A DNA stretch of 64,000 nt from Acidobacteriota bacterium. Its GTDB lineage: Bacteria; Acidobacteriota; UBA6911; RPQK01; CBDBID01. Both the position numbers and the translations under genes were made by a program. Within the stretch, counting starts at the first letter, position 1; each line of letters opens with the position of its first letter. The stretch spans positions 135,997-199,996 of the forward strand of contig CBDBID010000043.1 in NCBI GenBank assembly GCA_965205565.1, read 5' to 3'. This document shows positions 6,913 to 62,205 of this stretch, piece by piece. Below the pieces are notes generated by a model. It searched no databases. It was not told the origin of the DNA and saw nothing but the letters and a program-made list of their open reading frames with translations.

Positions 6913-6998
6913 GCCCGGGTGGCGGAACTGGCAGACGCACAGGACTTAAAATCCTGTGGGGGGTGACCCCCGTGCGGGTTCGATCCCCGCCCCGGGCA
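6913..6998 (+). tRNA. tRNA-Leu (anticodon TAA), with a long variable arm
   Basis: Acceptor stem gcccggg/cccgggc, anticodon loop cuUAAaa, T-loop ggttcgatccc, discriminator a. No encoded CCA. Confidence 0.85.
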
Positions 6999-7043
6999 CT
7001 TACAAATCAACAGGTTAAAGAGATCCCTGTCCACCACGACAAG

Positions 7044-7122
7044 CCTGAAATCAGGCAATTGTAACCAAAAATGTAACCGCGCCGACCCAACTCTATCCAA
7101 CCCCAGCCAACCTGAGGTCATT
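7044..7122 (+). repeat. Conserved tRNA-downstream motif, copy A (cctgaaa...TGTAACCaaaaaTGTAACCgc...cccaaccccagccaa...ggtcatt). The first TGTAACC lies 62 nt after the tRNA-Leu discriminator.
   Basis: About 75% identical to 13923..14020 at the same offset from tRNA-Arg. It contains an internal direct repeat with 12-bp period. Confidence 0.6.
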
Positions 7123-7323: not shown

Positions 7324-10246
7324 TTGACTGTCATTAGCCATTGTGACAGGCTGATCCCGACCATACCCCGTGGATCGCAGGAGACGCTCCCTTTGACCGG
7401 TCCGAAGGCATACAGATCGCTACCTGAGCGCACACCGAAGGTGGGCGAGCTGATCCAAGTACGTTCGAGGAGGTGGCTAGTAGAGGAGGTGGTCGAGCCC
7501 ACGACTCCAAGTCACTCAACCCTGGTCAAGCTTGCCTGTGCGGACGACGACGCCCAGGGTCAATCCCTGGACGTGTTCTGGGCCTACGAGGTTGACCGGC
7601 GGATCCTGGAAGAAGAGGGTTGGAGGGATCTTGCCGCAAAGGGTTTTGACGCTCCTCGGCAGTTTGCGGCCTTCCTCCACATGCTGCGATGGAATTGCGT
7701 CACAGCCACCGATCCAAACCTATTCCAGGCCCCTTTCCGTGCCGGCATAAAGATCGATGCCTACCAGATGGAGCCCTTGCGCAAGGCGCTCCGTCTCCCG
7801 CGCGTCAACCCTCTTCATCGCCGCCGACACCGGCCTGGGTAAGATGATCGAAGCGGGCCTGATCGCTCGCGAGTTGCTCCTCCGCAAGAAGGTCAAGACC
7901 ATCGTGGTCGCCGTGCCCCCGTCCGTGATCGAGCAATGGAAGGGTGAACTCGAGGACCGCTTCGGCCTCGTGTTCGAGATTCTCGATCGGACCTACCTGA
8001 CCAGGATGCTCCGGGAGCGCGGGTTCGGCGTTAATCCGTGGCGAACCCACAGCCGCTTCCTCGTTTCGCACAACCTCCTGATTGATGCGACCTATGCGGA
8101 CCCTCTTTGCGAGTGACTTGGGCCCATGCTGCCGGGGAGTCTACTCATTATTGATGAGGCTCATCACGCCGCACCCGCGAGCGGCGGGCACTACGGCATC
8201 GAGACGAAGTTCACCCGTGCCATCCGTGACCTCTGCGCTCGCTTTGAGCATCGGCTTTTCCTATCCGCGACGCCACACAACGGCCACTCCAACAGCTTCT
8301 CGACGCTGCTGGAGCTGCTCGACCCCTACCGCTTCACCCGCGGTGTCAAGGTTCGCGGCAAGAAGGCCCTCGAGGACATCATGGTCCGACGTCTCAAGGA
8401 GGACATCCGCGAGGTCCAGGGCGGTTTTCCAAGGCGTGTCGTCGAGCGGGTTGTCATTGGCGGCCTGCCCGAAGACGCGCCAGAACTTGAGCTGTCACGA
8501 CTTCTCGATCAATACCGCACAGTGCGCGAAGAGCGTCACGCCATCACCTCCCGCAGAGCCCAGGCCGCGGCAGGGCTTCTCATCGTGGGACTACAGCAGC
8601 GGCTGCTCTCCTCCACGGAGGCTTTCGCGCGCAGCTTGAAGGTCCACCGCAAAACGGTCGTGCGCCAGTGGCAGAAGGCAAGCGCGGAGCCCACCGTGGC
8701 TCCGAAAGCGGTCGAGGAAGAGGCCCTTCTCTTCACCACTTCCCCGGACGCCGCCGACGAGCGTGGCAATTGGCAGCCCGAGCAGCTCGAAGCCGAGGAA
8801 GCGGCTCAGATCGAGGCCGTGACCGCGGCCGCTGAGGTCGGCGCAAAGCGGGACGCGCAGACGGAGGCCCTCTGGCAGCAAGAGCAGGAACTCCTCGACC
8901 AGATGCAGGAAATCGCCGAGAAGACCCGACACCTGCCCGACGCCAAGACCCGCCGGCTCATCGACTGGATCCGGGAGAATATGTGTTCAGGTCTGCCGCC
9001 CTTTGGCCATGTTTCGGCCGGCGCGTCCCCGAAGTGGAACAACCGTCGCGTACTGATTTTCACCGAGAACCGCGAGGGCACGAAGCGCTACCTGAAACTG
9101 ATCCTCGAGCAGGCCATCGAGAGCACTAACCGAGCGGAGGAGCGGATTAAAGTCATCGACGGCCTGACGAGAGGGAGTAGCCGTAAGGAGATTCAGCGTA
9201 GGTTCAACACCGATCCAGCAAAGGACCCTCTGCGCATCCTGCTCGCCACCGATGCCGCCTGCGAAGGCCTCAATTTCCAGGCTCACTGTGCGGACCTCTT
9301 CCACTTCGATCTGCCTTGGAACCCTGGCCGCATCGAGCAGCGCAACGGCCGCATCGACCGCAAGCTGCAGCCGGCTGACGAGGTCCGTTGCCACTACTTT
9401 GTCCTCCCCCAGCGTGTTGAAGACCGTGTACTTGAGGTCCTTGTCAGAAAGACCGAGACCATCAAAAAGGAGTTGGGCAGTCTCTCGAAGGTCATCGATG
9501 ATGACATCGAGCGCAGACTCGGGGGCGGCATCCGCCACCGCGACGCCGGTCAGCTGGCCCGCGACATTGACCAGGCCGACCTCGACGAGGAGCGCAAGCG
9601 CGTTACCGAAGAGGAGCTCGAGGCCACCCGCGAGCGCCAAGAGGATCTGAAGGTACAGATCGAACGCTGCCAAAACCTCCTCGACAGCTCCCGCAAATGG
9701 GTGGACTTTGAGCCTGAGCCCTTCCGTGACGCCCTCTCCTGCTCCCTCGAGTTGCTGGGTGCAGAGCCCCTCGCAGAGACCAGTGACGAGGATGGCTCGC
9801 CGGTTTGGACCTTCCCCCCCCTTGACCGGCGCGCCGGGACCGACGCCAGTTGGGCTGCGACACTGGACACACTGCGAGCACCTCGCAAGACGGATCAGAA
9901 GCTTACCGAGTGGCGTCGTGAGGCACCGATCCGGCCGGTCGTCTTCGAGGATGTCGGCGTCCTCAGCGAGGAGACCGTACACCTTCACCTTGAGCAACGA
10001 GTCGCTCAACGTTTGCTCGCCCGCTTCCGCTCCCAGGGCTTCATCCAGATCCCGATAGGCCAGAAGTCCGGCATCCGAAGTGACCTTTGCCCCATGAAAC
10101 TCAAGCCTCAAACTGCCATCAAAACCGAGCTTCATACCTTCACCCTTTGGGTCGGCCATTTCTTGCTCCATTCATGCGCCATATCTCCTTTATTTATAGC
10201 GTCGTACATCGATAAAAGGAAGCATTTATCGTGTCCCATATGGTGA
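7324..10246 (+). pseudogene. SNF2-family helicase (about 970 aa if repaired). It is broken by an extra C in the CCC run at about 7808-7810 and by an in-frame TGA at 8114-8116.
   Basis: Motif I LFIAADTGLGKTIEAGL, motif II LIIDEAHHA, motif III LFLSATPHNG, motifs V/VI LLATDAACEGLNFQ...QRNGRIDRK. The three ORFs are collinear. ORF2 and ORF3 share a frame across the TGA (DPLCE*LGPMLPGSLLIIDEAHH). Confidence 0.75.
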
Positions 10247-12417: not shown

Positions 12418-13211
12418 GGTTGTCAAGTTATCGAGCTGACCGCCAGTTCGAGACGCAATACACTCCAGCCTAGTTTCTTCTCAGCGGGCACAAGTCGCCT
12501 CTCTCCAGCCATCGAAAGCCCGGTCGCGAAGGAGACGATGATGAACCGCTTTCAGGTGGTGTCGACCAACGCGGAACAGATTCTGAACGGGACCGTGGAC
12601 AGCCAATAGCCGTTGGGTCTGGGCAATTGATTTGAATCGTCGCATTTGACGCTCCTTCTCGCGGGTGTGTTGGTGCGAGACCTCAGCCCGGTTGTTCTCG
12701 TACTGACCGGTTCGATGCTCAACTGAAGGGAAGACTTCGTGGTGCGCGGCGGGATAGCTCTTTAGCTTGTCCGTGATCAGTCTCCACGGCGGTTTTCCTT
12801 GAGCCTTTGATACTTTGCGAAAAAAGCGCTTAGCGGCCCGCTTGTCTCTTCGTTTCGTCACCAGAATGTCGAGAACATCGCCGTCCTGGTCAACCGCTCT
12901 CCAGAGGTAGAGTTGTTGTCCTTGAATCTTCACGAACAACTCGTCCACATGCCAGATATCGCCGAGTCGCCCCTGTTTCTTTCGGAGGGTTCGGGCGTAC
13001 TCTGGTCCAAACTTCAGACACCAGAAGCGGATTGCCTCATAAGAGACAATGATGCCACGCTCGGCCAGAAGATCCTCCACGTCTCGAAAGCTGAGAGTGA
13101 AGCGGTGATAAAGCCAAACGGCGCGGCTGATGATTTCAGGCGGAAAGCGGTGACCTCTGTAGAGTGATTCCATCCCGAAATTGTCGCTGACCGCCGCTCA
13201 ACTTGACAACG
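12418..13211 (-). mobile_element. IS6-family insertion sequence (about 794 bp) with 11/12-bp terminal inverted repeats: ggttgtcaagtt at 12418-12429 and aacttgacaacg at 13200-13211.
   Basis: A single transposase ORF flanked by inverted repeats that I located by reverse-complement matching. The size fits IS6 family elements. Confidence 0.7.
12481..13173 (-). CDS. IS6-family DDE transposase (IS26-like)
   Basis: MESLYRGHRFPPEIISRAVWLYHRF...WHVDELFVKIQGQQLYLWRAVD...ITDKLKSYPAA are the N-terminal HTH and DDE core blocks typical of the IS6/IS26 transposase. Confidence 0.85.
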   Translation of the reverse strand: MESLYRGHRFPPEIISRAVWLYHRFTLSFRDVEDLLAERGIIVSYEAIRFWCLKFGPEYARTLRKKQGRLGDIWHVDELFVKIQGQQLYLWRAVDQDGDVLDILVTKRRDKRAAKRFFRKVSKAQGKPPWRLITDKLKSYPAAHHEVFPSVEHRTGQYENNRAEVSHQHTREKERQMRRFKSIAQTQRLLAVHGPVQNLFRVGRHHLKAVHHRLLRDRAFDGWREATCAR

Positions 13212-13803: not shown

Positions 13804-13880
<77 letters not shown>

Positions 13881-13922: not shown

Positions 13923-14020
13923 CCTGAAAGGTGTCAAATGTAACCGAAATTGTAACCGCTCCAATCCAACGCCACCCAACCCCAGCCAAACATCGCCCTC
14001 GGAGACAAGCTGGGTCATTG
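13923..14020 (+). repeat. Conserved tRNA-downstream motif, copy B (cctgaaa...TGTAACCgaaatTGTAACCgc...cccaaccccagccaa...ggtcatt). The first TGTAACC lies 62 nt after the tRNA-Arg discriminator.
   Basis: Collinear with 7044..7122, with the same offset and the same 12-bp repeat period. Confidence 0.6.
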
Positions 14021-50427: not shown

Positions 50428-51453
50428 TCACTCCAGGCTGATTCTCCTCAGAAGGCCGCTGTCGGCCAGCAGCCTACCGGTTCCTAGAACTGCCGAAGAA
50501 AGAGGGTCCTCGGCCCGAAAAATGAGCAGCCCGGTTTCGGACTTCAGCCTCAGGTCGAGATTCCTCAACAGCGCTCCCCCTCCGGTGAGAACAATCCCCT
50601 TGTCCACAATGTCGGCCGATAGCTCGGGGGGAGTCCGCGCCAATGCCACCCGCACGGCATTAATGATGGTCTTGACAGTGTTGGAAAGGGCCTCGCGCAC
50701 TTCCTCGTCCGTAATGGTGGCCGTCTTGGGGATGCCTTCTATGAGGTCTCGACCCTTGATCTGCATCAGCATTTTCTTTTCCAGGGGTGCGGCTGACCCG
50801 ATCTGGATCTTGACCTGCTCCGCGCTGCGCTCGCCAATCAGTAGGTTGTGCCTTCGCTTGATGTACTGGATGATCGATTCATCCATCTCATGTCCGGCCA
50901 CGCGTACCGAGCGGCTGTACACGATGCCCGAGAGGCTGATCACTGCAATGTCGGTGGTGCCTCCCCCCAGATCGACCACCATGTTGCCGCTGGGCTCCGT
51001 GATGGGGAGTCCCGCACCGAGGGCTGCGGCCATGGCCTCTTCGACCAGATAGACTTCACTGGCCTTGGCTTGCAGAGCAGACTCACGAACCGCTCGCTTC
51101 TCGACCTGAGTGATATCCGAGGGGATGCACATCACGATACGAGGGCTGACGAGGTGGTTTCGGTTGTGGGCCTTTTTGATAAAGTGTTTCAGCATTTCTT
51201 TGGTAATGTCGAAATCGCCGATCACTCCATCCTTCATGGGTTTGATGGCGACAATGTTCCCGGGGGTCCGGCCCAGCATGTTCTTGGCCGCGCGACCCAC
51301 GGCTGCGACGCGGTTGGTGATCTTGTCGATGGCGACAATCGAAGGCTCATCCACGACAATCCCTCGGCCTCGGGCGTAGACCAAGGTGTTTGCCGTTCCG
51401 AGATCGATGGCCAGATCATTCGAGAAATAGCTGAAAAGTGACCTGAGGTTCAT
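50428..51453 (-). CDS. mreB: Rod shape-determining protein MreB
   Basis: IDLGTANTLVY, actin-fold phosphate loops (DLGGGTTD) and a C-terminal ...AVLGTG. Confidence 0.9.
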   Translation of the reverse strand: MNLRSLFSYFSNDLAIDLGTANTLVYARGRGIVVDEPSIVAIDKITNRVAAVGRAAKNMLGRTPGNIVAIKPMKDGVIGDFDITKEMLKHFIKKAHNRNHLVSPRIVMCIPSDITQVEKRAVRESALQAKASEVYLVEEAMAAALGAGLPITEPSGNMVVDLGGGTTDIAVISLSGIVYSRSVRVAGHEMDESIIQYIKRRHNLLIGERSAEQVKIQIGSAAPLEKKMLMQIKGRDLIEGIPKTATITDEEVREALSNTVKTIINAVRVALARTPPELSADIVDKGIVLTGGGALLRNLDLRLKSETGLLIFRAEDPLSSAVLGTGRLLADSGLLRRISLE

Positions 51454-54205: not shown

Positions 54206-55450
54206 TAAGGTGGCTCCGACCTGAATGAGAAAGGACGGGGAGTCATGGCAAAACGAAGGAATTTTTCAGCCCAATTCAGAGCGAAAGTGGCGCTTGAGGC
54301 GCTTCGAAGCTAACACCGCGTGAGTGAGCTGGTAGCCCGCTACGAGATCCACCCGAATCTGATCACGAACGGGAAGAAACGGGTGCGAGAAGGGATGGTG
54401 GAGGTGTTCAAGGGCAAAGCGGACAAGGGCAGGGCCGGCACACAAGCCGAGAGCAAGGAGCTGTACGCCAAGATCGGCGAGCTGACGGTGGAAAAGGATT
54501 TTTTGTCCAAAGTGCTCGATCGTTGAGTGTGAAGGCCAGACAGGCCGCGATCGAGCCGGGGCACCGTCGGCTGAGCATCCGCAGACAATGCTCTTTGATG
54601 AGTTTGTCTCGTTCGACGTATTACTATGAGCCCCAGGGAGAGAACCCCCGGAACCTGCAACTGATGAGACGAATGGACGAGCAGTTCTTAGAGACGCCCT
54701 ACTACGGGTCCCGACAGATGGTTTATCACTTGCGTCGGCAGGGCTATCGAGTGGGCCGTAAACGAGTGCACCGCCTGATGGCAAAGATGGGCCTGGCAGC
54801 CATCTACCCGAAGCCACGCGCCTCCAAGCCCAATGTGGGCCATCAAGTGTCTCCGTACCTGCTTCGAGATCTGGAGGTCAATCAGCCCGATCAGGTGTGG
54901 TGCGCGGACGTGACTACATTCCGATGCGGAGAGGTTTTTTGTACCTGGTGGCGATCATGGACTGGTACAGCCGGATGGTGCTGTCCTGGAGGCTGTCGAA
55001 CACGCTGGAGCCGGACTTTTGTGCCGAGGCACTGCAGCAAGCGCTGGTGATCTACAATAACAATAAGCCGGAGATCTTCGATACCGACCAGGGAAGTCAG
55101 TTCACCAGCACACTTTTCACTGGCTTGTTGCGAGATGCCTGGGTACGCATCTCGATGGACGGCAAGGGCCGCTGGATGGACAATGTTTTTATCGAGCGAC
55201 TGTGGCGTTCACTCAAGTACGAATGCGTCTATCTGAATGTTTTCGAGACCGGAACCGAGGCCCGACTGGGTATCGGACAGTGGATTGAGCGATACAACTC
55301 CCAACGACCCCATTCGACCCATCAGGGAGCGACCCCAGAGGAGGTGTGCACTGGCCTGGTCAAAAATACTGAGAGGGACCTCGCCCTTGGGCTCGCCCCC
55401 TCTCAGTATTTCCCAGACTGGCGGCAACAAGAACTACGGAGTCCACCTTA
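54206..55450 (+). mobile_element. IS3-family insertion sequence (about 1245 bp), decayed. orfA has a TAA nonsense codon at 54311-54313. orfB is frameshifted near 54911-54925. Imperfect inverted repeats are taaggtggctccgac at the left and ggagtccacctta at the right.
   Basis: orfA begins MAKRRNFSAQFRAKVALEALRS*HRVSELVARYEIHPNLI... orfB overlaps the orfA stop (54523). DDE core VWCADVT | YIPMRRGFLYLVAIMDWYSRMVLSW... Confidence 0.7.
54245..54526 (+). pseudogene. IS3-family OrfA (HTH) with a premature TAA
   Basis: See the mobile element above. The ORF track only calls 54320..54526 because of the upstream stop. Confidence 0.65.
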
Positions 55451-55451
55451 A
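54523..55451 (+). pseudogene. IS3-family OrfB (DDE integrase core). It is split into 54523..55050 and 54897..55451.
   Basis: ...KPNVGHQVSPYLLRDLEVNQPDQVWCADVT then a frame switch to YIPMRRGFLYLVAIMDWYSR...DQGSQFTS...ERLWRSLKYE. Confidence 0.65.
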
Positions 55452-55599
55452 AAATGCCGCCAACTGGTCCAACCGATCGGGTCCACCTCTCCTCCCGCTG
55501 TTCTGGCCGCAGCGATCCTGTTTGGGTCCAGCTAGGATCGGTGGAGAGGTTGCAGCCAGCTTCGGTCTTTTCGTCCCACCGAGGACGGGCAAACCATGA

Positions 55600-56051: not shown

Positions 56052-57662
56052 ATGGTCGTTGAGATGAACATACTTCTGTACACGCCTGACAACCAGGTAA
56101 CACGCAACCACATGCCACACCTCTGGATGTTCGTTCTTCAAGCGCTCACTCCACCCGAACATGAGGTCTTCCTCATAGATGGCAATGCTCAGCCATTAAC
56201 GGAAATGGAAATAGTAGATTTTGTCCGGAAGAATAAGATCAAACTGGTCGGAATCGGTTGTATGACTCGTGTGGCTGCCCAAGCCTATCGAGTGGCGGAT
56301 GCGGTTCGCGCCGCCGGTGTCAAGGTGGTTATGGGAGGGCCTCACGTCACCGAAGTGCCGGACGAGCCGATTGGACGTGACAGCGAGCCTCGGCACGCCG
56401 ATGCTGTCGCTCTCGGTGAGACCGATGACATCTGGCCGCAAATCGTACGAGACGCCCAACGAAACCAACTCCGCGAAGTTTACAGACCCATAGATGAAAC
56501 GGGAAAAGAGATCAAGCCGTCACTGGCGGACTACCCCCGCATTCCATGGGATCGGATGAATCTAGACCAGTTCAATCTCGTCAGGAAGATACCTTCGTGG
56601 GGACGCTACCTCATGAGACGGGCAGGCCTAGACTGGAAGAGCTTGTATGTACTACCAGTCGAATCGGGACGTGGTTGTCCTTACGGCTGTGATTTTTGTA
56701 CAGTCACGGGATTTTTTGGGAAGTCTATTCGGTATCGGACGGACGAGAGCGTGGTCGATGAGTTGCATCGTATCAAAGAGCGAGCGAAATTGGAGGGAGG
56801 CAAGGTGTGCGTCTTCTTCATCGATGACAATTTTGCCATCAACGTCAAGCGAACCAAGTCGTTGCTTCGTGAAATGATCGCTCGTGACGCCGTGTTGCCC
56901 TGGGTGGCCCAAATCAGCATGAATCTACTTCGTGACGAAGAACTGGTCGACCTGATCGCTGCCAGTGGAGGGCACTGGATATTCATGGGACTTGAGTCGG
57001 TTGACGCTGAGAGCCTGAAGGGGGTCAACAAAGGGTTCAATAAGCCGGATCAATACAAAGCGGTCATAGAGCGGTTAGCGGACCGGGGCATTTACGCCAT
57101 CACCTCCTTCATCTTTGGAATGGACACAGACCGCCCCGGTGTCGCAAAGAAAACACTCCAAGCTATAGAGTCCTGGCCTCCTGGCCTCCCGGTATTCGGG
57201 CTTCTCACGCCGTATCCCGCCACCCCTCTCTACGATCGTCTCCTCCAGCAGAATCGTCTCACCCGACCCAAACACTGGCTCGACTTCCGTCCTTTCCGGA
57301 TGGCTTTCACACCCGAGAATATCAGCGTGGAACAAGCCGAATCCGAAGTTCACGAGGCCTGGAGTCGTTGTTACGATCCACAGGCCATTGCCGCCGGTCT
57401 CAAGAAGATTGAAGGACGTCCGTTTATCGAACGCGCCGCGATGTTCTTCGCACGGCTCACCTTTCGGGGCATCTATTTCCCCCAGATGAAGGTACGGTCA
57501 TGGATTTCACTGTTGTTCAGCAACCGCCGGACCTTGCTGAAGTTAATACACGAGGGCTTTATTGCTCATCAGAGGCACCGTCAAAGCACGAGGCCAACGG
57601 ACGACTTGGGCCGGGTCTCTGTTAAACGGGTTAAACGCCTTAAGAGGATTTTCCCGGTTTAA
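56052..57662 (+). CDS. B12-binding radical SAM protein (class B), with a DUF4070-like C-terminus
   Basis: N-terminal cobalamin-binding region (IKLVGIGCMTRVAAQAY...VVMGGPHVT). Radical SAM Cys triad CPYGCDFC. Confidence 0.75.
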   Translation: MVVEMNILLYTPDNQVTRNHMPHLWMFVLQALTPPEHEVFLIDGNAQPLTEMEIVDFVRKNKIKLVGIGCMTRVAAQAYRVADAVRAAGVKVVMGGPHVTEVPDEPIGRDSEPRHADAVALGETDDIWPQIVRDAQRNQLREVYRPIDETGKEIKPSLADYPRIPWDRMNLDQFNLVRKIPSWGRYLMRRAGLDWKSLYVLPVESGRGCPYGCDFCTVTGFFGKSIRYRTDESVVDELHRIKERAKLEGGKVCVFFIDDNFAINVKRTKSLLREMIARDAVLPWVAQISMNLLRDEELVDLIAASGGHWIFMGLESVDAESLKGVNKGFNKPDQYKAVIERLADRGIYAITSFIFGMDTDRPGVAKKTLQAIESWPPGLPVFGLLTPYPATPLYDRLLQQNRLTRPKHWLDFRPFRMAFTPENISVEQAESEVHEAWSRCYDPQAIAAGLKKIEGRPFIERAAMFFARLTFRGIYFPQMKVRSWISLLFSNRRTLLKLIHEGFIAHQRHRQSTRPTDDLGRVSVKRVKRLKRIFPV

Positions 57663-57844
57663 AGGAATGGCGCGATGCAGTGGACGAGTATCAGAAGATG
57701 GCCAAGCACTGACCAAGCTTTCGAAATCTGTCTCCCAAATGTTTCCCACTGCGTTTCCGAATGTTTCCTAATCTTTCGGCTTTTCGGGTGGCGGAAAACC
57801 CAGTCAAGTGGTTGTTTTTCCTAACGTTTCGGCCTTTTCTAGGA

Positions 57845-57894
57845 TTGGTCTACGAAACCAAAGGTCGCAGGTTCAAATCCTGTCGGGCGCTCCA
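57845..57894 (+). tRNA. 5'-truncated tRNA-Arg (anticodon ACG) fragment. It has the anticodon arm, T-arm, 3' acceptor strand and CCA. The 5' acceptor strand and D-arm are missing.
   Basis: The anticodon stem ttggt/accaa is perfect. T-arm gcagg-ttcaaat-cctgt. cgggcgc-t-cca at the 3' end. No gcgcccg or D-arm upstream. Confidence 0.6.
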
Positions 57895-58805
57895 CTTAAC
57901 CCTTGGATTCCATTGATCTTGAGTTGATATTTACTGCACCGAACTGGTGCCACTTTCTCCGTCGTACAACATTTCTACAACGTCATTACCCTGACCCAGT
58001 GCTTGATCCAGAGCGGAAGAAGACGTCTCCAGCTCTCGGGCGTCCACTGGTCAAACGTGGACATTGGGTCTCACTTTTGCACCCTATCCGCACCCGGCGA
58101 GTCCCGGTTTGCCCTCTAAGGCTAACTGTGTCTCCGGTCAGTCTACTGCAATATGGCTGACGTTCAGGGTGTTTCGGTATAGTACTCCTTGTGAAAAATC
58201 GAGAAAAAAGCTCGATATTGGGGGGCCCATTCTGGCAGATGAGTACAGGAAAGAAGATCCACACTGGCCCCAAAACCAGGGACGAGATCCTAGGCAAATT
58301 CGGGGATAGTGTCCGAACTATCATGCGCGGCAGTCCCGAATCCGGCCGAAAACCCAGTGAGTACTTCGAAAGGGAAAAGGTTGCTCTCAGGAAGCGTAGA
58401 GATGGCGAAGCGTGTAGAAAAGCAAGGGATTGCGCCGAGGTCACCGGTTCCGGTGTCAGATACTCGGAAGGTTGGCTGTGTAGATCATGCTGGCGAAGCG
58501 AGATGAGTCGGCGTAAGGGCAGGAACGAGCGCCGCAGATTGTCCAAAGGTGATTCCGGCTTTGTTCCATCCTACCCTTGGCAAAAACAGACCTTTCGCAT
58601 TGAGAATCTGCATGTCATCGATTTCAACTTCGGGCGGTTCGACGGGCTTCGAGACGCAGAAAACTACTATGCTAGCAGAATGGGGGCGGAGAAAGATCAG
58701 AACTGATCCATTCCCTCAACTGCCGCTGCACCCCTGGGGCGGAGAAAACGCGGCTGGAATCCGGCTCTCACCAGCTGCGGCAACAGATGACCATCCGTGC
58801 CTACG

Positions 58806-60471
58806 CTACTTCCTATCCGGAAATCGGCTTTTTAAGACGCTCGTAGTCGAGTCGACCCCAATCAACGGCTGGCAATCCGTTATGTGCAGTGGGCTGGGGA
58901 CCTAAACGGACCACACAGAGTCGATTTTAGTCGATTTCAAGAGACACTTCGGCCCTTTGCCAGACGGATCGAGATGTCAGCCGCAGGAGCACCTCTACAA
59001 TCGCAGGCGCGCCAGTACCAGCAGATTGTAGGAAAGGGTCGAGAGCTGCAGGTACTGCTGGAAGCGCTGCCAGCCTTTCCAGTGGCAGCGGTCCAGCCCG
59101 AAGACGCGCTTGAGCATCGAGATACAGCCTTCGATGCCGGCCCGAAAGCGGCGCAGTTGTTTGTATACCCAGCTGGAGGAGACCATCGATTCGATCGAGA
59201 GTCCGCACTTTTTGGCGAAAGCCACATCCTTGAGGCCGGGTTTGTTTTTGGCCAAGGCCAAGTTCGCTTTCGATGCAAAGCCCCCGTCCAAGCTGGCCTG
59301 ACGCGGATAAGAGCCGTATTGATGGCAGTGCCGATCTAGCATCGTCTCCAGGTAAGTGCTATCGGACGGGTTGCCCCGCACCGGCAGACAATCCAGGATC
59401 AGAGAGGATCTGCCACAGGATAGAAAAACTTTGTGCCCATAGACCGTTTCCCGGCCGCCTTTGCGAATCAGATCGGTGTGCTCCTCGAAAATGGAAACCA
59501 CCTTGTGGCTGGCCGGGACCGATTCCCCCCGCAAAACACGACGCTCGGTCTGATCGATCACTCGATGGGTCAGTTCCAGGTAGTGTTCGAGTAAGCTCCT
59601 CTCTCGCACAACACGGGGATGGCTGGAGTCTTCGCAGGCCGCCAGGGCTGCCCGGGCGTAGCCTGCCATCTTGCGGGTGACTTTGAGCAGATCGCGATAA
59701 GGGCCAATGCGCAGGGTCTGACGGCGGGCATTGCTGATGGCCAGACAGCGGCGGCGAGCCCGCAAGCCATGATCCCGGTAAGGGAAGTCGACAAAACAAG
59801 AAAGTCGTCCCAGCCAACGGGCCAGCACCCGTACGCAATCAGAGAGCAGTTGATTATCGGTGGGGTGGTGGATCTCACTCTCCACCGGGGTGGCGTCGAT
59901 TCTGACCTTCTCTCCCTTCTCCAAGCCTTGCTCACAGGCCCAGTCCACCAGCGCCGCGTTGATGGCCCGCCAGGTTGAGTGGCGGATGCGCGAGAGGTTC
60001 TCGGCCAGGGTGGAACGAGCCGGGGTCCAGCCCAAAGGCAGCCGGCAGAAGGCCCGCAAGCTCACAGAATCGGCCAGGTGAAAGGCCAAGCGGTCATAGG
60101 AGAACTGATGCATCTGTTTGATCACACCACAGCGCAACACCTGCTCCCCGCTCATTCCCGGAGCCCCTTTTGTCGAGTCTGCCTCACTGAGATCTTGCCA
60201 GACCCGTTCGTTCAGCTTAGAATTTTCATCGAGGATCTTGGAAATCTCCCGCAGTTCCTGTGCGTGCTGGTGATCGGGCCAGAGGGGAGTCAGCGGCAGC
60301 TGATTTTCACGACTTTGACGCATCTTTGACCTCCTGGCTTTGCCGTAAGTCTTGTTGTTTCAATGTTTTGTGAACATTATTGTACCAAGACACCACGACA
60401 ACAATGGAGGTCGAAGATGCGGCCTAAGCCTTTTATTTACAACTATTTATCCTTTTCCGGATGAGAACTAG
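58806..60471 (-). mobile_element. IS element copy 1 (1666 bp). It has one 442-aa DDE transposase. Imperfect inverted repeats CTACTTCCTATCCGGAAA and CTAGTTCTCATCCGGAAA. The family is tentatively IS1380-like, judged from size and architecture.
   Basis: The period between the two copies is 1668 bp. The boundaries come from self-alignment of the two copies. Confidence 0.7.
58995..60323 (-). CDS. DDE transposase (IS4/IS5-superfamily, IS1380-like), copy 1
   Basis: 442 aa. C-terminal block FRAGIEGCISMLKRVFGLDRCHWKGWQRFQQYLQLSTLSYNLLVLARL is typical of the IS4/IS5/IS1380 superfamily. Confidence 0.7.
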   Translation of the reverse strand: MRQSRENQLPLTPLWPDHQHAQELREISKILDENSKLNERVWQDLSEADSTKGAPGMSGEQVLRCGVIKQMHQFSYDRLAFHLADSVSLRAFCRLPLGWTPARSTLAENLSRIRHSTWRAINAALVDWACEQGLEKGEKVRIDATPVESEIHHPTDNQLLSDCVRVLARWLGRLSCFVDFPYRDHGLRARRRCLAISNARRQTLRIGPYRDLLKVTRKMAGYARAALAACEDSSHPRVVRERSLLEHYLELTHRVIDQTERRVLRGESVPASHKVVSIFEEHTDLIRKGGRETVYGHKVFLSCGRSSLILDCLPVRGNPSDSTYLETMLDRHCHQYGSYPRQASLDGGFASKANLALAKNKPGLKDVAFAKKCGLSIESMVSSSWVYKQLRRFRAGIEGCISMLKRVFGLDRCHWKGWQRFQQYLQLSTLSYNLLVLARLRL

Positions 60472-60473
60472 CT

Positions 60474-62139
60474 CTACTTCCTATCCGGAAATCGGCTTTT
60501 TAAGACGCTCGTAGTCGAGTCGACCCCAATCAACGGCTGGCAATCCGTTATGTGCAGTGGGCTGGGGACCTAAACGGACCACACAGAGTCGATTTTAGTC
60601 GATTTCAAGAGACACTTCGGCCCTTTGCCAGACGGATCGAGATGTCAGCCGCAGGAGCACCTCTACAATCGCAGGCGCGCCAGTACCAGCAGATTGTAGG
60701 AAAGGGTCGAGAGCTGCAGGTACTGCTGGAAGCGCTGCCAGCCTTTCCAGTGGCAGCGGTCCAGCCCGAAGACGCGCTTGAGCATCGAGATACAGCCTTC
60801 GATGCCGGCCCGAAAGCGGCGCAGTTGTTTGTATACCCAGCTGGAGGAGACCATCGATTCGATCGAGAGTCCGCACTTTTTGGCGAAAGCCACATCCTTG
60901 AGGCCGGGTTTGTTTTTGGCCAAGGCCAAGTTCGCTTTCGATGCAAAGCCCCCGTCCAAGCTGGCCTGACGCGGATAAGAGCCGTATTGATGGCAGTGCC
61001 GATCTAGCATCGTCTCCAGGTAAGTGCTATCGGACGGGTTGCCCCGCACCGGCAGACAATCCAGGATCAGAGAGGATCTGCCACAGGATAGAAAAACTTT
61101 GTGCCCATAGACCGTTTCCCGGCCGCCTTTGCGAATCAGATCGGTGTGCTCCTCGAAAATGGAAACCACCTTGTGGCTGGCCGGGACCGATTCCCCCCGC
61201 AAAACACGACGCTCGGTCTGATCGATCACTCGATGGGTCAGTTCCAGGTAGTGTTCGAGTAAGCTCCTCTCTCGCACAACACGGGGATGGCTGGAGTCTT
61301 CGCAGACCGCCAGGGCTGCCCGGGCGTAGCCTGCCATCTTGCGGGTGACTTTGAGCAGATCGCGATAAGGGCCAATGCGCAGGGTCTGACGGCGGGCATT
61401 GCTGATGGCCAGACAGCGGCGGCGAGCCCGCAAGCCATGATCCCGGTAAGGGAAGTCGACAAAACAAGAAAGTCGTCCCAGCCAACGGGCCAGCACCCGT
61501 ACGCAATCAGAGAGCAGTTGATTATCGGTGGGGTGGTGAATCTCACTCTCCACCGGGGTGGCGTCGATTCTGACCTTCTCTCCCTTCTCCAAGCCTTGCT
61601 CACAGGCCCAGTCCACCAGCGCCGCGTTGATGGCCCGCCAGGTTGAGTGGCGGATGCGCGAGAGGTTCTCGGCCAGGGTGGAACGAGCCGGGGTCCAGCC
61701 CAAAGGCAGCCGGCAGAAGGCCCGCAAGCTCACAGAATCGGCCAGGTGAAAGGCCAAGCGGTCATAGGAGAACTGATGCATCTGTTTGATCACACCACAG
61801 CGCAACACCTGCTCCCCGCTCATTCCCGGAGCCCCTTTTGTCGAGTCTGCCTCACTGAGATCTTGCCAGACCCGTTCGTTCAGCTTAGAATTTTCATCGA
61901 GGATCTTGGAAATCTCCCGCAGTTCCTGTGCGTGCTGGTGATCGGGCCAGAGGGGAGTCAGTGGCAGCTGATTTTCACGACTTTGACGCATCTTTGACCT
62001 CCTGGCTTTGCCGTAAGTCTTGTTGTTTCAATGTTTTGTAAACATTATTGTACCAAGACACCACGACAACAATGGAGGTCGAAGATGCGGCCTAAGCCTT
62101 TTATTTACAACTATTTATCCTTTTCCGGATGAGAACTAG
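60474..62139 (-). mobile_element. IS element copy 2 (1666 bp). It follows copy 1 head-to-tail after a 2-bp 'ct' spacer.
   Basis: Identical to copy 1 except for a few SNPs. In the transposase, A versus V at AAC/AVC. Elsewhere RP/RS and RS/RF. Confidence 0.7.
60663..61991 (-). CDS. DDE transposase (IS1380-like), copy 2
   Basis: Same 442-aa product as copy 1 with one substitution. Confidence 0.7.
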   Translation of the reverse strand: MRQSRENQLPLTPLWPDHQHAQELREISKILDENSKLNERVWQDLSEADSTKGAPGMSGEQVLRCGVIKQMHQFSYDRLAFHLADSVSLRAFCRLPLGWTPARSTLAENLSRIRHSTWRAINAALVDWACEQGLEKGEKVRIDATPVESEIHHPTDNQLLSDCVRVLARWLGRLSCFVDFPYRDHGLRARRRCLAISNARRQTLRIGPYRDLLKVTRKMAGYARAALAVCEDSSHPRVVRERSLLEHYLELTHRVIDQTERRVLRGESVPASHKVVSIFEEHTDLIRKGGRETVYGHKVFLSCGRSSLILDCLPVRGNPSDSTYLETMLDRHCHQYGSYPRQASLDGGFASKANLALAKNKPGLKDVAFAKKCGLSIESMVSSSWVYKQLRRFRAGIEGCISMLKRVFGLDRCHWKGWQRFQQYLQLSTLSYNLLVLARLRL

Positions 62140-62205
62140 CTCTAGACTTCTAAAGAGCCGAAATCTATGGTGGTAAGGGTTGTTTTCCTTTCAAGAGGTG
62201 CCACC

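Follow-up and report, generated by a model that had tools for sequence, protein, structure and literature searches.

An orphaned tRNA-Arg(ACG) 3' half in an Acidobacteriota genome, a probable relic of tRNA-targeted integration

Tyrosine integrases that insert into tRNA genes (tDNAs) duplicate the 3' part of the target, and the regenerated gene and the displaced fragment become the two ends of the resulting genomic island; among the islands analyzed in Islander, 2083 of 3919 use an anticodon-centred attachment (att) site, class 'A' (PMC4383910). Here we describe the 3' half of a tRNA-Arg(ACG) gene that lies at 57845-57894 on the forward strand (+) of a 64,000-nt stretch of contig CBDBID010000043.1, from an uncultured member of the Acidobacteriota (the window; its positions are counted from its first nucleotide). 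The start of the fragment, position 57845, coincides with the first anticodon-stem base, a canonical crossover sublocation at which att sites of the anticodon-centred class begin. This class is reportedly the 'class I' described by Williams in Nucleic Acids Research in 2002. We consider it moderately probable that the fragment is a duplicated, non-functional tRNA-Arg(ACG) 3' half left by site-specific recombination, a relic att site that has been stranded by insertion sequence (IS) rearrangement.

Read 5' to 3' on the forward strand, the fragment comprises the anticodon arm TTGGT/CTACGAA/ACCAA (57845-57861, with the anticodon ACG at 57852-57854), a 5-nt variable loop AGGTC (57862-57866), the T-arm GCAGG/TTCAAAT/CCTGT (57867-57883), the 3' acceptor strand CGGGCGC (57884-57890), a discriminator T (57891) and CCA (57892-57894). 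As Islander expects of a displaced fragment, it matches the 3' part of a tDNA: 44 of 46 positions (57845-57890) are the same as in intact tRNA-Arg(ACG) genes of other taxa (BLAST, E=7e-15). The alignment places the start of this homology at tRNA position 27, the first anticodon-stem base, and immediately upstream the window has CTAGGA where the intact genes have GAGCG. The last 33 nt of the fragment agree with the window's own tRNA-Arg(TCT) gene at 30 of 33 positions, so the acceptor/T-arm type is native to this genome. Judged by its sequence, the 44/46 match and a partial Rfam match (below), 57845-57894 is to be regarded as a genuine, non-functional tRNA-Arg(ACG) 3' half and not a chance look-alike, as the first-pass annotation of this DNA had proposed; the D-arm and the 5' acceptor strand are indeed absent.

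The fragment differs from the matching tRNAs by a G-to-A substitution in the T-loop and by a C-to-T substitution at the end of the T-stem that produces a G-U pair, and its discriminator is T where theirs is G or A. The locus recurs, ~99% identical, on three long-read metagenome contigs from sister strains (L001-L003; the contig behind L002 is circular and 4.57 Mb long). L002 and L003 have the fragment unchanged, while L001 has one further substitution in it, a G-to-T change in the variable loop. We interpret these changes, that in L001 included, as signs of decay through mutational drift.

A functional tRNA gene was defined as a complete cloverleaf at or above the gathering score of Rfam model RF00005, or an ARAGORN call. 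ARAGORN finds only tRNA-Leu(TAA) (6913-6999) and tRNA-Arg(TCT) (13804-13880) in the whole window, and Rfam at the gathering score returns the same two genes, so neither covariance-model nor ARAGORN searches reveal an intact tRNA that the first-pass annotation, by its own caveat, might have overlooked at this locus. When Rfam is run in E-value mode, a partial tRNA match appears at 57820-57883 (model positions 10-63), but its 26.8 bits fall short of the gathering score of 29, and no functional tRNA-Arg gene is therefore recognized at 57845-57894. In this match, CCTA and TAGG are forced to pair across a 15-nt insert to make up the 'D-arm', and the 5' acceptor strand is unmatched. Nor was a missing 5' portion found nearby: within 550 nt upstream, the best candidate for the 5' acceptor strand pairs with CGGGCGC at 6 of 7 positions, G-U pairs included, and none is plausible. 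Across the window, the intact Arg(TCT) gene alone supplies a tRNA-Arg 5' half, and a search of the interval between groEL and the radical-SAM gene that precedes the fragment found no 5' half there.

The exact 46-mer of the fragment has no match in the GTDB representative genomes or the JGI metagenomes, in neither of which this species is represented. A degenerate 41-mer derived from the fragment was searched in GTDB genomes, JGI metagenomes and viral contigs. It retrieved intact tRNA-Arg(ACG) genes that share the anticodon arm of the fragment: those from GTDB lie on contigs named as Actinomycetota; those on unnamed JGI contigs stand for the most part in the same tRNA-Ser(GCT)/tRNA-Arg(ACG) arrangement; and the viral contigs gave no match. 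Matches in phage and plasmid collections were restricted to the ~50-nt piece, and their targets were tRNA-Arg genes.

The 41-mer also retrieved a second orphan 3' piece of tRNA-Arg(ACG), in Acidobacteria bacterium AH-259-G07 (JALLON010000094.1, locus L012, 2805-2849). The two pieces derive from the same tRNA species and share the same 3' 45 nt (93% identical), both are without a 5' half, and both are without an integrase within a few kilobases. They differ in that the AH-259-G07 piece begins in the anticodon loop, whereas that of the window begins at the stem base; in their flanks, which are unrelated; and at the 3' end, which is consensus in AH-259-G07 and substituted in the window. The last 33 nt of the AH-259-G07 piece are identical to the window's tRNA-Arg(TCT).

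Immediately upstream of the fragment, a repeat search located a cluster of four 13-nt direct repeats, TTCCNAANNTTTC, at 57733, 57755, 57765 and 57818 (span 57733-57830, +), with all four copies within 112 nt of the fragment. The cluster contains a 21-nt repeat pair that is 86% identical (57764-57784 and 57817-57837, +). Allowing one mismatch, TTCCNAANNTTTC has five matches on the two strands of the 64-kb window, and the cluster accounts for four of the five; outside the sister-strain copies of the locus, the other loci fetched by then contained isolated single matches only. The first-pass annotation had reported two upstream repeat copies. Those repeats are real, and they correspond to the 21-nt pair, but the number was too low, since four 13-mers are present. 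Their position upstream of the core makes the TTCCNAANNTTTC repeats candidate arm-type integrase sites.

We infer an integrase origin for the fragment because its boundary falls precisely where the anticodon stem begins, a point at which a random deletion would rarely end; because the TTCCNAANNTTTC cluster immediately upstream occupies the position of arm sites; and because a second orphan of the same tRNA exists in an acidobacterium (L012). The case is circumstantial but coherent, and this origin is the most economical explanation. It would imply the following history. Recombination within the anticodon loop would once have joined an element with a tyrosine integrase to a tRNA-Arg(ACG) gene, the element bringing its own version of the gene's 3' portion, anticodon stem included. 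Integration would have doubled this stretch, with one copy completing a working gene and the other being the fragment. Later IS-driven deletions and rearrangements would have parted the fragment from its partner tRNA and from the integrase, so that it would now lie, mutating, with the conserved radical-SAM gene on one side and the decayed remains of mobile elements on the other. The neighborhood is both mobile and scrambled: there is an IS3-family remnant upstream and an IS pair downstream, and the sister strains have a phrog_3678 gene and a truncated integrase gene. We call the fragment a stranded relic rather than a delimitable island end because the partner tRNA, the integrase and a plausible island body are all missing. 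As to the type of att site, we favor a P-arm/core junction, either an attR or the junction in the middle of what was once a tandem array, because of the left-hand repeats; the right-hand debris would suit an attL that has since lost its 5' half.

Several observations weigh against a stranded att relic. The intact genes that gave the 44/46 match belong to other taxa and are not this genome's own, and no intact tRNA-Arg(ACG) gene occurs in the 57.8 kb upstream of the fragment or in the 6 kb downstream. No P4-like integrase was found at E<0.07 when six-frame translations of the window were searched with a profile, which was built from 70 full-length P4-like integrases and is blind to distant tyrosine recombinases; a Pfam scan covered part of the open reading frames (ORFs). 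With a conserved gene only 182 nt to the left, hardly anything can be left of an element on that side. The flanking repeats differ in motif between left and right, so the locus is not a single attP of the classical kind. Finally, the nearest integrase, which is present in the sister strains, is encoded 3' of the fragment on the other strand, is truncated, and has relatives that are associated with transfer-messenger RNA (tmRNA).

The right-hand repeats require closer description. TACAAC-N5-TACAAC occurs at 57965-57981 (+), 71 nt past the CCA, as the first-pass annotation had stated, and is the single exact match in the window; its significance is doubtful. By our estimate, chance alone should yield such a once-repeated 6-mer within a few hundred bases, and the 19-mer around it, GTACAACATTTCTACAACG, has no exact match in viral contigs. 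A 51-nt block, 84% identical between its two copies, follows each of the intact tRNA genes: at 7060-7110 after tRNA-Leu(TAA) and at 13939-13989 after tRNA-Arg(TCT). Each copy opens with TGTAACC-N5-TGTAACC, 60-61 nt past the tRNA's 3' end. In appearance these blocks are relics of the arms of two integrative elements related to each other, of which no integrase is left in the window. The right flank of the fragment has no sequence similarity to the 51-nt block, and the suggestion that TACAAC-N5-TACAAC echoes TGTAACC-N5-TGTAACC did not hold up: the likeness is one of position alone (+71 versus +60/61 nt) and is indistinguishable from chance. We also considered TGTAACC-N5-TGTAACC as a phage arm motif, but of the 108 stretches of viral contigs that contain it, 80 were fetched and none of these lay beside a tRNA, and we treat its occurrence there as chance.

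Farther to the right, at 58079-58095 (+), is GCACCCTATCCGCACCC, a 6-mer repeated with an 11-nt period, which belongs to a 37-nt match (81%, E=0.006) to L027 and L028, two contigs that carry P4-like integrase genes. The corresponding 17-mer, GCACCCTATC(C/T)GCACCC, is found at 58079-58095 in the window, at ~194-210 in a further such contig, L026, and at 9689-9705 in L027; in L026, L027 and L028, the alignment places it on the far side of tmRNA-like pieces that lie by the integrase genes. GCACCCTATCCGCACCC may thus be a relic arm site of a second, P4-like element, and the right flank of the fragment may be debris of another element, although the evidence for both is weak. Arms of the same consensus on both sides, together with an adjacent integrase, would mark the attP of a heterobivalent, arm-binding tyrosine integrase; here the left side has four copies of TTCCNAANNTTTC, the right side has unrelated short repeats, and no integrase adjoins the core.

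On the left, the fragment is preceded by genes that do not resemble the body of an island. mreB (50428-51453, minus strand) and groES/groEL (about 51.9-53.9 kb) are followed by a frameshifted IS3-family remnant (54523-55451), in which the HTH_21 and then the rve domain are encoded in two frames. This remnant is without the upstream orfA part, which L003 retains, and L003 has an additional IS4-like insertion at the equivalent of window position 55531. Next comes a B12-binding radical-SAM gene (56064-57662, +; Pfam PF04055 and PF02310), whose stop codon is 182 nt from the fragment on the same strand. Its product has thousands of homologues at 70-91% identity, of which the named ones are from Acidobacteriota, and the 3-6 single-nucleotide polymorphisms (SNPs) between strains are every one synonymous: the gene is conserved and under purifying selection. 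In relatives whose radical-SAM genes are 91% or 80% identical, neither a tRNA nor the fragment is found downstream of the gene, and nucleotide homology to relatives stops at 57635, near the stop codon. An ancestral tRNA gene downstream of the radical-SAM gene was accordingly ruled out, and these comparisons show the fragment to be lineage-specific and restricted to this species. In the 91% relative, the radical-SAM gene and a PilZ gene lie between inverted copies of an IS3-family element, an arrangement like that of a composite transposon (L016, 8053-14425; L017, 6184-14423), with an integrase gene and toxin-antitoxin genes close by.

On the right, the first feature is a 171-aa basic ORF (58191-58706, +; 38 K+R versus 23 D+E). 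The first-pass annotation had called it a basic hypothetical protein; the composition is basic as stated, but it is probably no real gene. A search of 5.8 billion clusters gave no homologue from beyond the species, and there is no Pfam or PHROG match. Three SNPs in it are common to the three sister strains and all are non-synonymous; L002 adds two silent ones. The tandem IS dimer that had been noted to the right is confirmed as an IS5/IS1182-like pair at about 58806-62144 (minus strand), with a 442-aa transposase (Pfam DDE_Tnp_1 and DUF772). The IS unit is 1.67 kb long and has the ends CTACTTCCTATCCGGAAA ... TTTCCGGATGAGAACTAG; other contigs, L010 and L005, carry this IS too, in tandem or inverted pairs. 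The sister strains are without the IS pair, and the empty site in L002 is CTAG (12738-12741). BLAST shows that colinearity with L001-L003 ends at 58803, where the IS begins. The DNA past the IS pair, with genes for an HD protein and a dipeptidase, is unlike that of the sister strains, and we therefore conclude that the window strain has undergone an IS-mediated rearrangement; an exact-match look-up of the dipeptidase returned no match on record.

To the right of the fragment, the sister strains have, in order, the 171-aa ORF, a 115-aa phage-type gene (phrog_3678, E=2e-8), a MacB/FtsX permease gene and, ~3 kb from the fragment on the minus strand, an N-terminally truncated integrase gene. Full-length relatives of this integrase are ~400 aa long and 78-84% identical, have the domain order Arm-DNA-bind_3, Phage_int_M, Phage_integrase, and are encoded on several Acidobacteriota contigs, including one from AH-259-G07. 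Named homologues of the integrase and of the radical-SAM protein point to Acidobacteriota as the source of the window. At most of the integrase loci that were fetched, a 59-nt piece lies ~170 nt from the integrase gene; Rfam aligns these pieces to the tmRNA 3' end, and ARAGORN calls them tRNA-Ala(GGC). Such tmRNA-like pieces are located at 280-338 in L026, at 9772-9830 and 20440-20500 in L027, and at 2296-2366 in L028, all on the minus strand, and the two in L027 bracket the integrase gene together with ~9 kb of cargo. Direct repeats of the form GGACCCTAT-N2-GGACCCTAT, with an 11-nt period, lie just upstream of int. The 59-nt pieces may be att pieces of ssrA or small tRNA-like genes in their own right, and because the tmRNA-like pieces adjoin them, the P4-like integrases as a group appear to use an ssrA-type site. 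The truncated integrase is thus probably unrelated to the tRNA-Arg fragment, and as the cognate enzyme it was ruled out: it has the wrong orientation, lies on the wrong side, and has its relatives beside tmRNA-like pieces.

How do other explanations fare against these observations? According to the first-pass annotation, the fragment is the distal att scar of a tRNA-targeting integrase, from which a candidate island could be delimited. We retain the att origin, on account of the stem-base boundary and the repeat cluster, but not the model of a distal scar. An attR end of a still-definable island would require that the island start at an intact tRNA-Arg(ACG) gene on the same strand farther upstream. 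The orientation rule could be satisfied by a gene beyond the left end of the window, the upstream repeat cluster is on the side expected for a P-arm, and the radical-SAM gene, which in relatives occurs in IS-flanked or variable contexts, could be cargo. However, the 57.8 kb upstream contains no tRNA genes but Leu(TAA) and Arg(TCT), mreB and groES/groEL lie there, and no integrase was found in any frame with the P4-like profile, nor anywhere in the window by tblastn; none was thus found between a tDNA and the fragment, where Islander would have it. Such an island would need more than 57 kb and would include housekeeping genes and two other tRNA genes. The tRNA-Arg(TCT) gene at 13804-13880 was rejected as the partner despite the 30/33 agreement, given the ACG anticodon arm of the fragment and the 44 kb, housekeeping genes included, that separate the two. 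The mobile debris, for its part, lies to the right of the fragment, which is the wrong side for a distal scar, and its integrase group is tmRNA-associated. We judge a still-definable island to be unlikely; no island can be delimited from this fragment, because the tRNA-Arg(ACG) gene of this genome is unavailable for pairing. A minor but appreciable chance attaches to a pseudogene that formed without an integrase, in which a copy of tRNA-Arg(ACG), duplicated or native and possibly with an island already to its right (an attL), lost its 5' 26 nt by IS-mediated deletion or rearrangement. An IS-rich region whose strains differ by IS insertions and a rearrangement is a fitting place for such an event, and mobile debris with a possible arm-like repeat lies on the 3' side, as it would beside an attL. 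Chance would nevertheless be needed to put the breakpoint precisely where the anticodon stem starts; no IS end touches the fragment, with the nearest IS remnant ending ~2.4 kb upstream; the 5' half is not found within 57 kb; and the four upstream direct repeats are left unexplained.

The remaining explanations assign a present role to the fragment. It is very unlikely that the locus is a live recombination site, whether attP-like, hybrid (the junction in the middle of islands in tandem) or a secondary attB usable by an integrase encoded elsewhere. The anticodon stem-loop, with core-type binding sites and the overlap region, is complete, there are repeats on both sides, and the sequence is kept in four strains; but no integrase is nearby, the repeats of the two sides are unrelated motifs, and the four strains are ~99% identical throughout, which makes conservation uninformative, with the L001 substitution falling in the piece itself. 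We considered more specifically whether the tRNA half and its phased upstream repeats together form a still-competent, element-borne recombination site, attP-like or a secondary landing pad, and find this highly improbable. Orphan copies of this tRNA-Arg(ACG) type are known to us from two Acidobacteriota, the window genome and AH-259-G07, and across 185,579 GTDB species representatives and the JGI metagenomes the only contigs on which the type was found intact are those of Actinomycetota and those that show the tRNA-Ser(GCT)/tRNA-Arg(ACG) arrangement. If the idea were true, part of a tRNA would be moving between phyla on an element, and an active element of this kind would provide a handle on an unrecognised integrative element and on target specificity in Acidobacteriota. 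A function as RNA, for example as a tRNA-half or tRNA-like element that, at the 3' end of the radical-SAM mRNA, signals processing or stabilises the transcript, would agree with the location of the fragment just past the stop codon on the same strand and with the folding of the piece alone as two hairpins. Yet no promoter-like or terminator-like sites were found, the fragment is absent downstream of the orthologues in relatives, and L001 carries its substitution; a larger structured RNA was rejected, as 57725-57900 gives z=-0.31. This last explanation we hold to be extremely improbable.

Taken as a stranded att relic, the fragment is an ordinary feature of a known kind, unusual only in being orphaned and in decaying within an IS-rich genome. 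It would record an integration of long ago and a spot prone to rearrangement in the IS-rich genome of an uncultured organism, with little import beyond annotation. For island finders that use pairs of tRNA genes and fragments, the lesson is that relics are missed or mis-delimited once IS activity has parted the partners.

Besides the AH-259-G07 piece, two described systems provide the closest comparisons. P4-like integrase islands at tRNA and tmRNA genes resemble the locus in that a truncated member of the integrase family lies 3 kb to the right in the sister strains, and in that repeats with an 11-12-nt period occur upstream of int in relatives (L026, L027, L029) as well as in the vicinity of the fragment and of the window's two intact tRNAs. 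They differ in that the relatives of the integrase adjoin tmRNA-like pieces instead of tRNA-Arg, in that its orientation and side do not fit, and in that it is absent from the window. In contrast to the attR core of an Islander class 'A' or Williams class I island, the fragment has neither a cognate full-length tDNA nor an integrase within reach, has a conserved gene and housekeeping genes on the side where the island is expected, and carries 2-3 substitutions. In its build, however, it corresponds to such a core: it extends from the anticodon stem to CCA with the 5' half absent, direct repeats lie near it, and mobile-element remnants and IS surround it.

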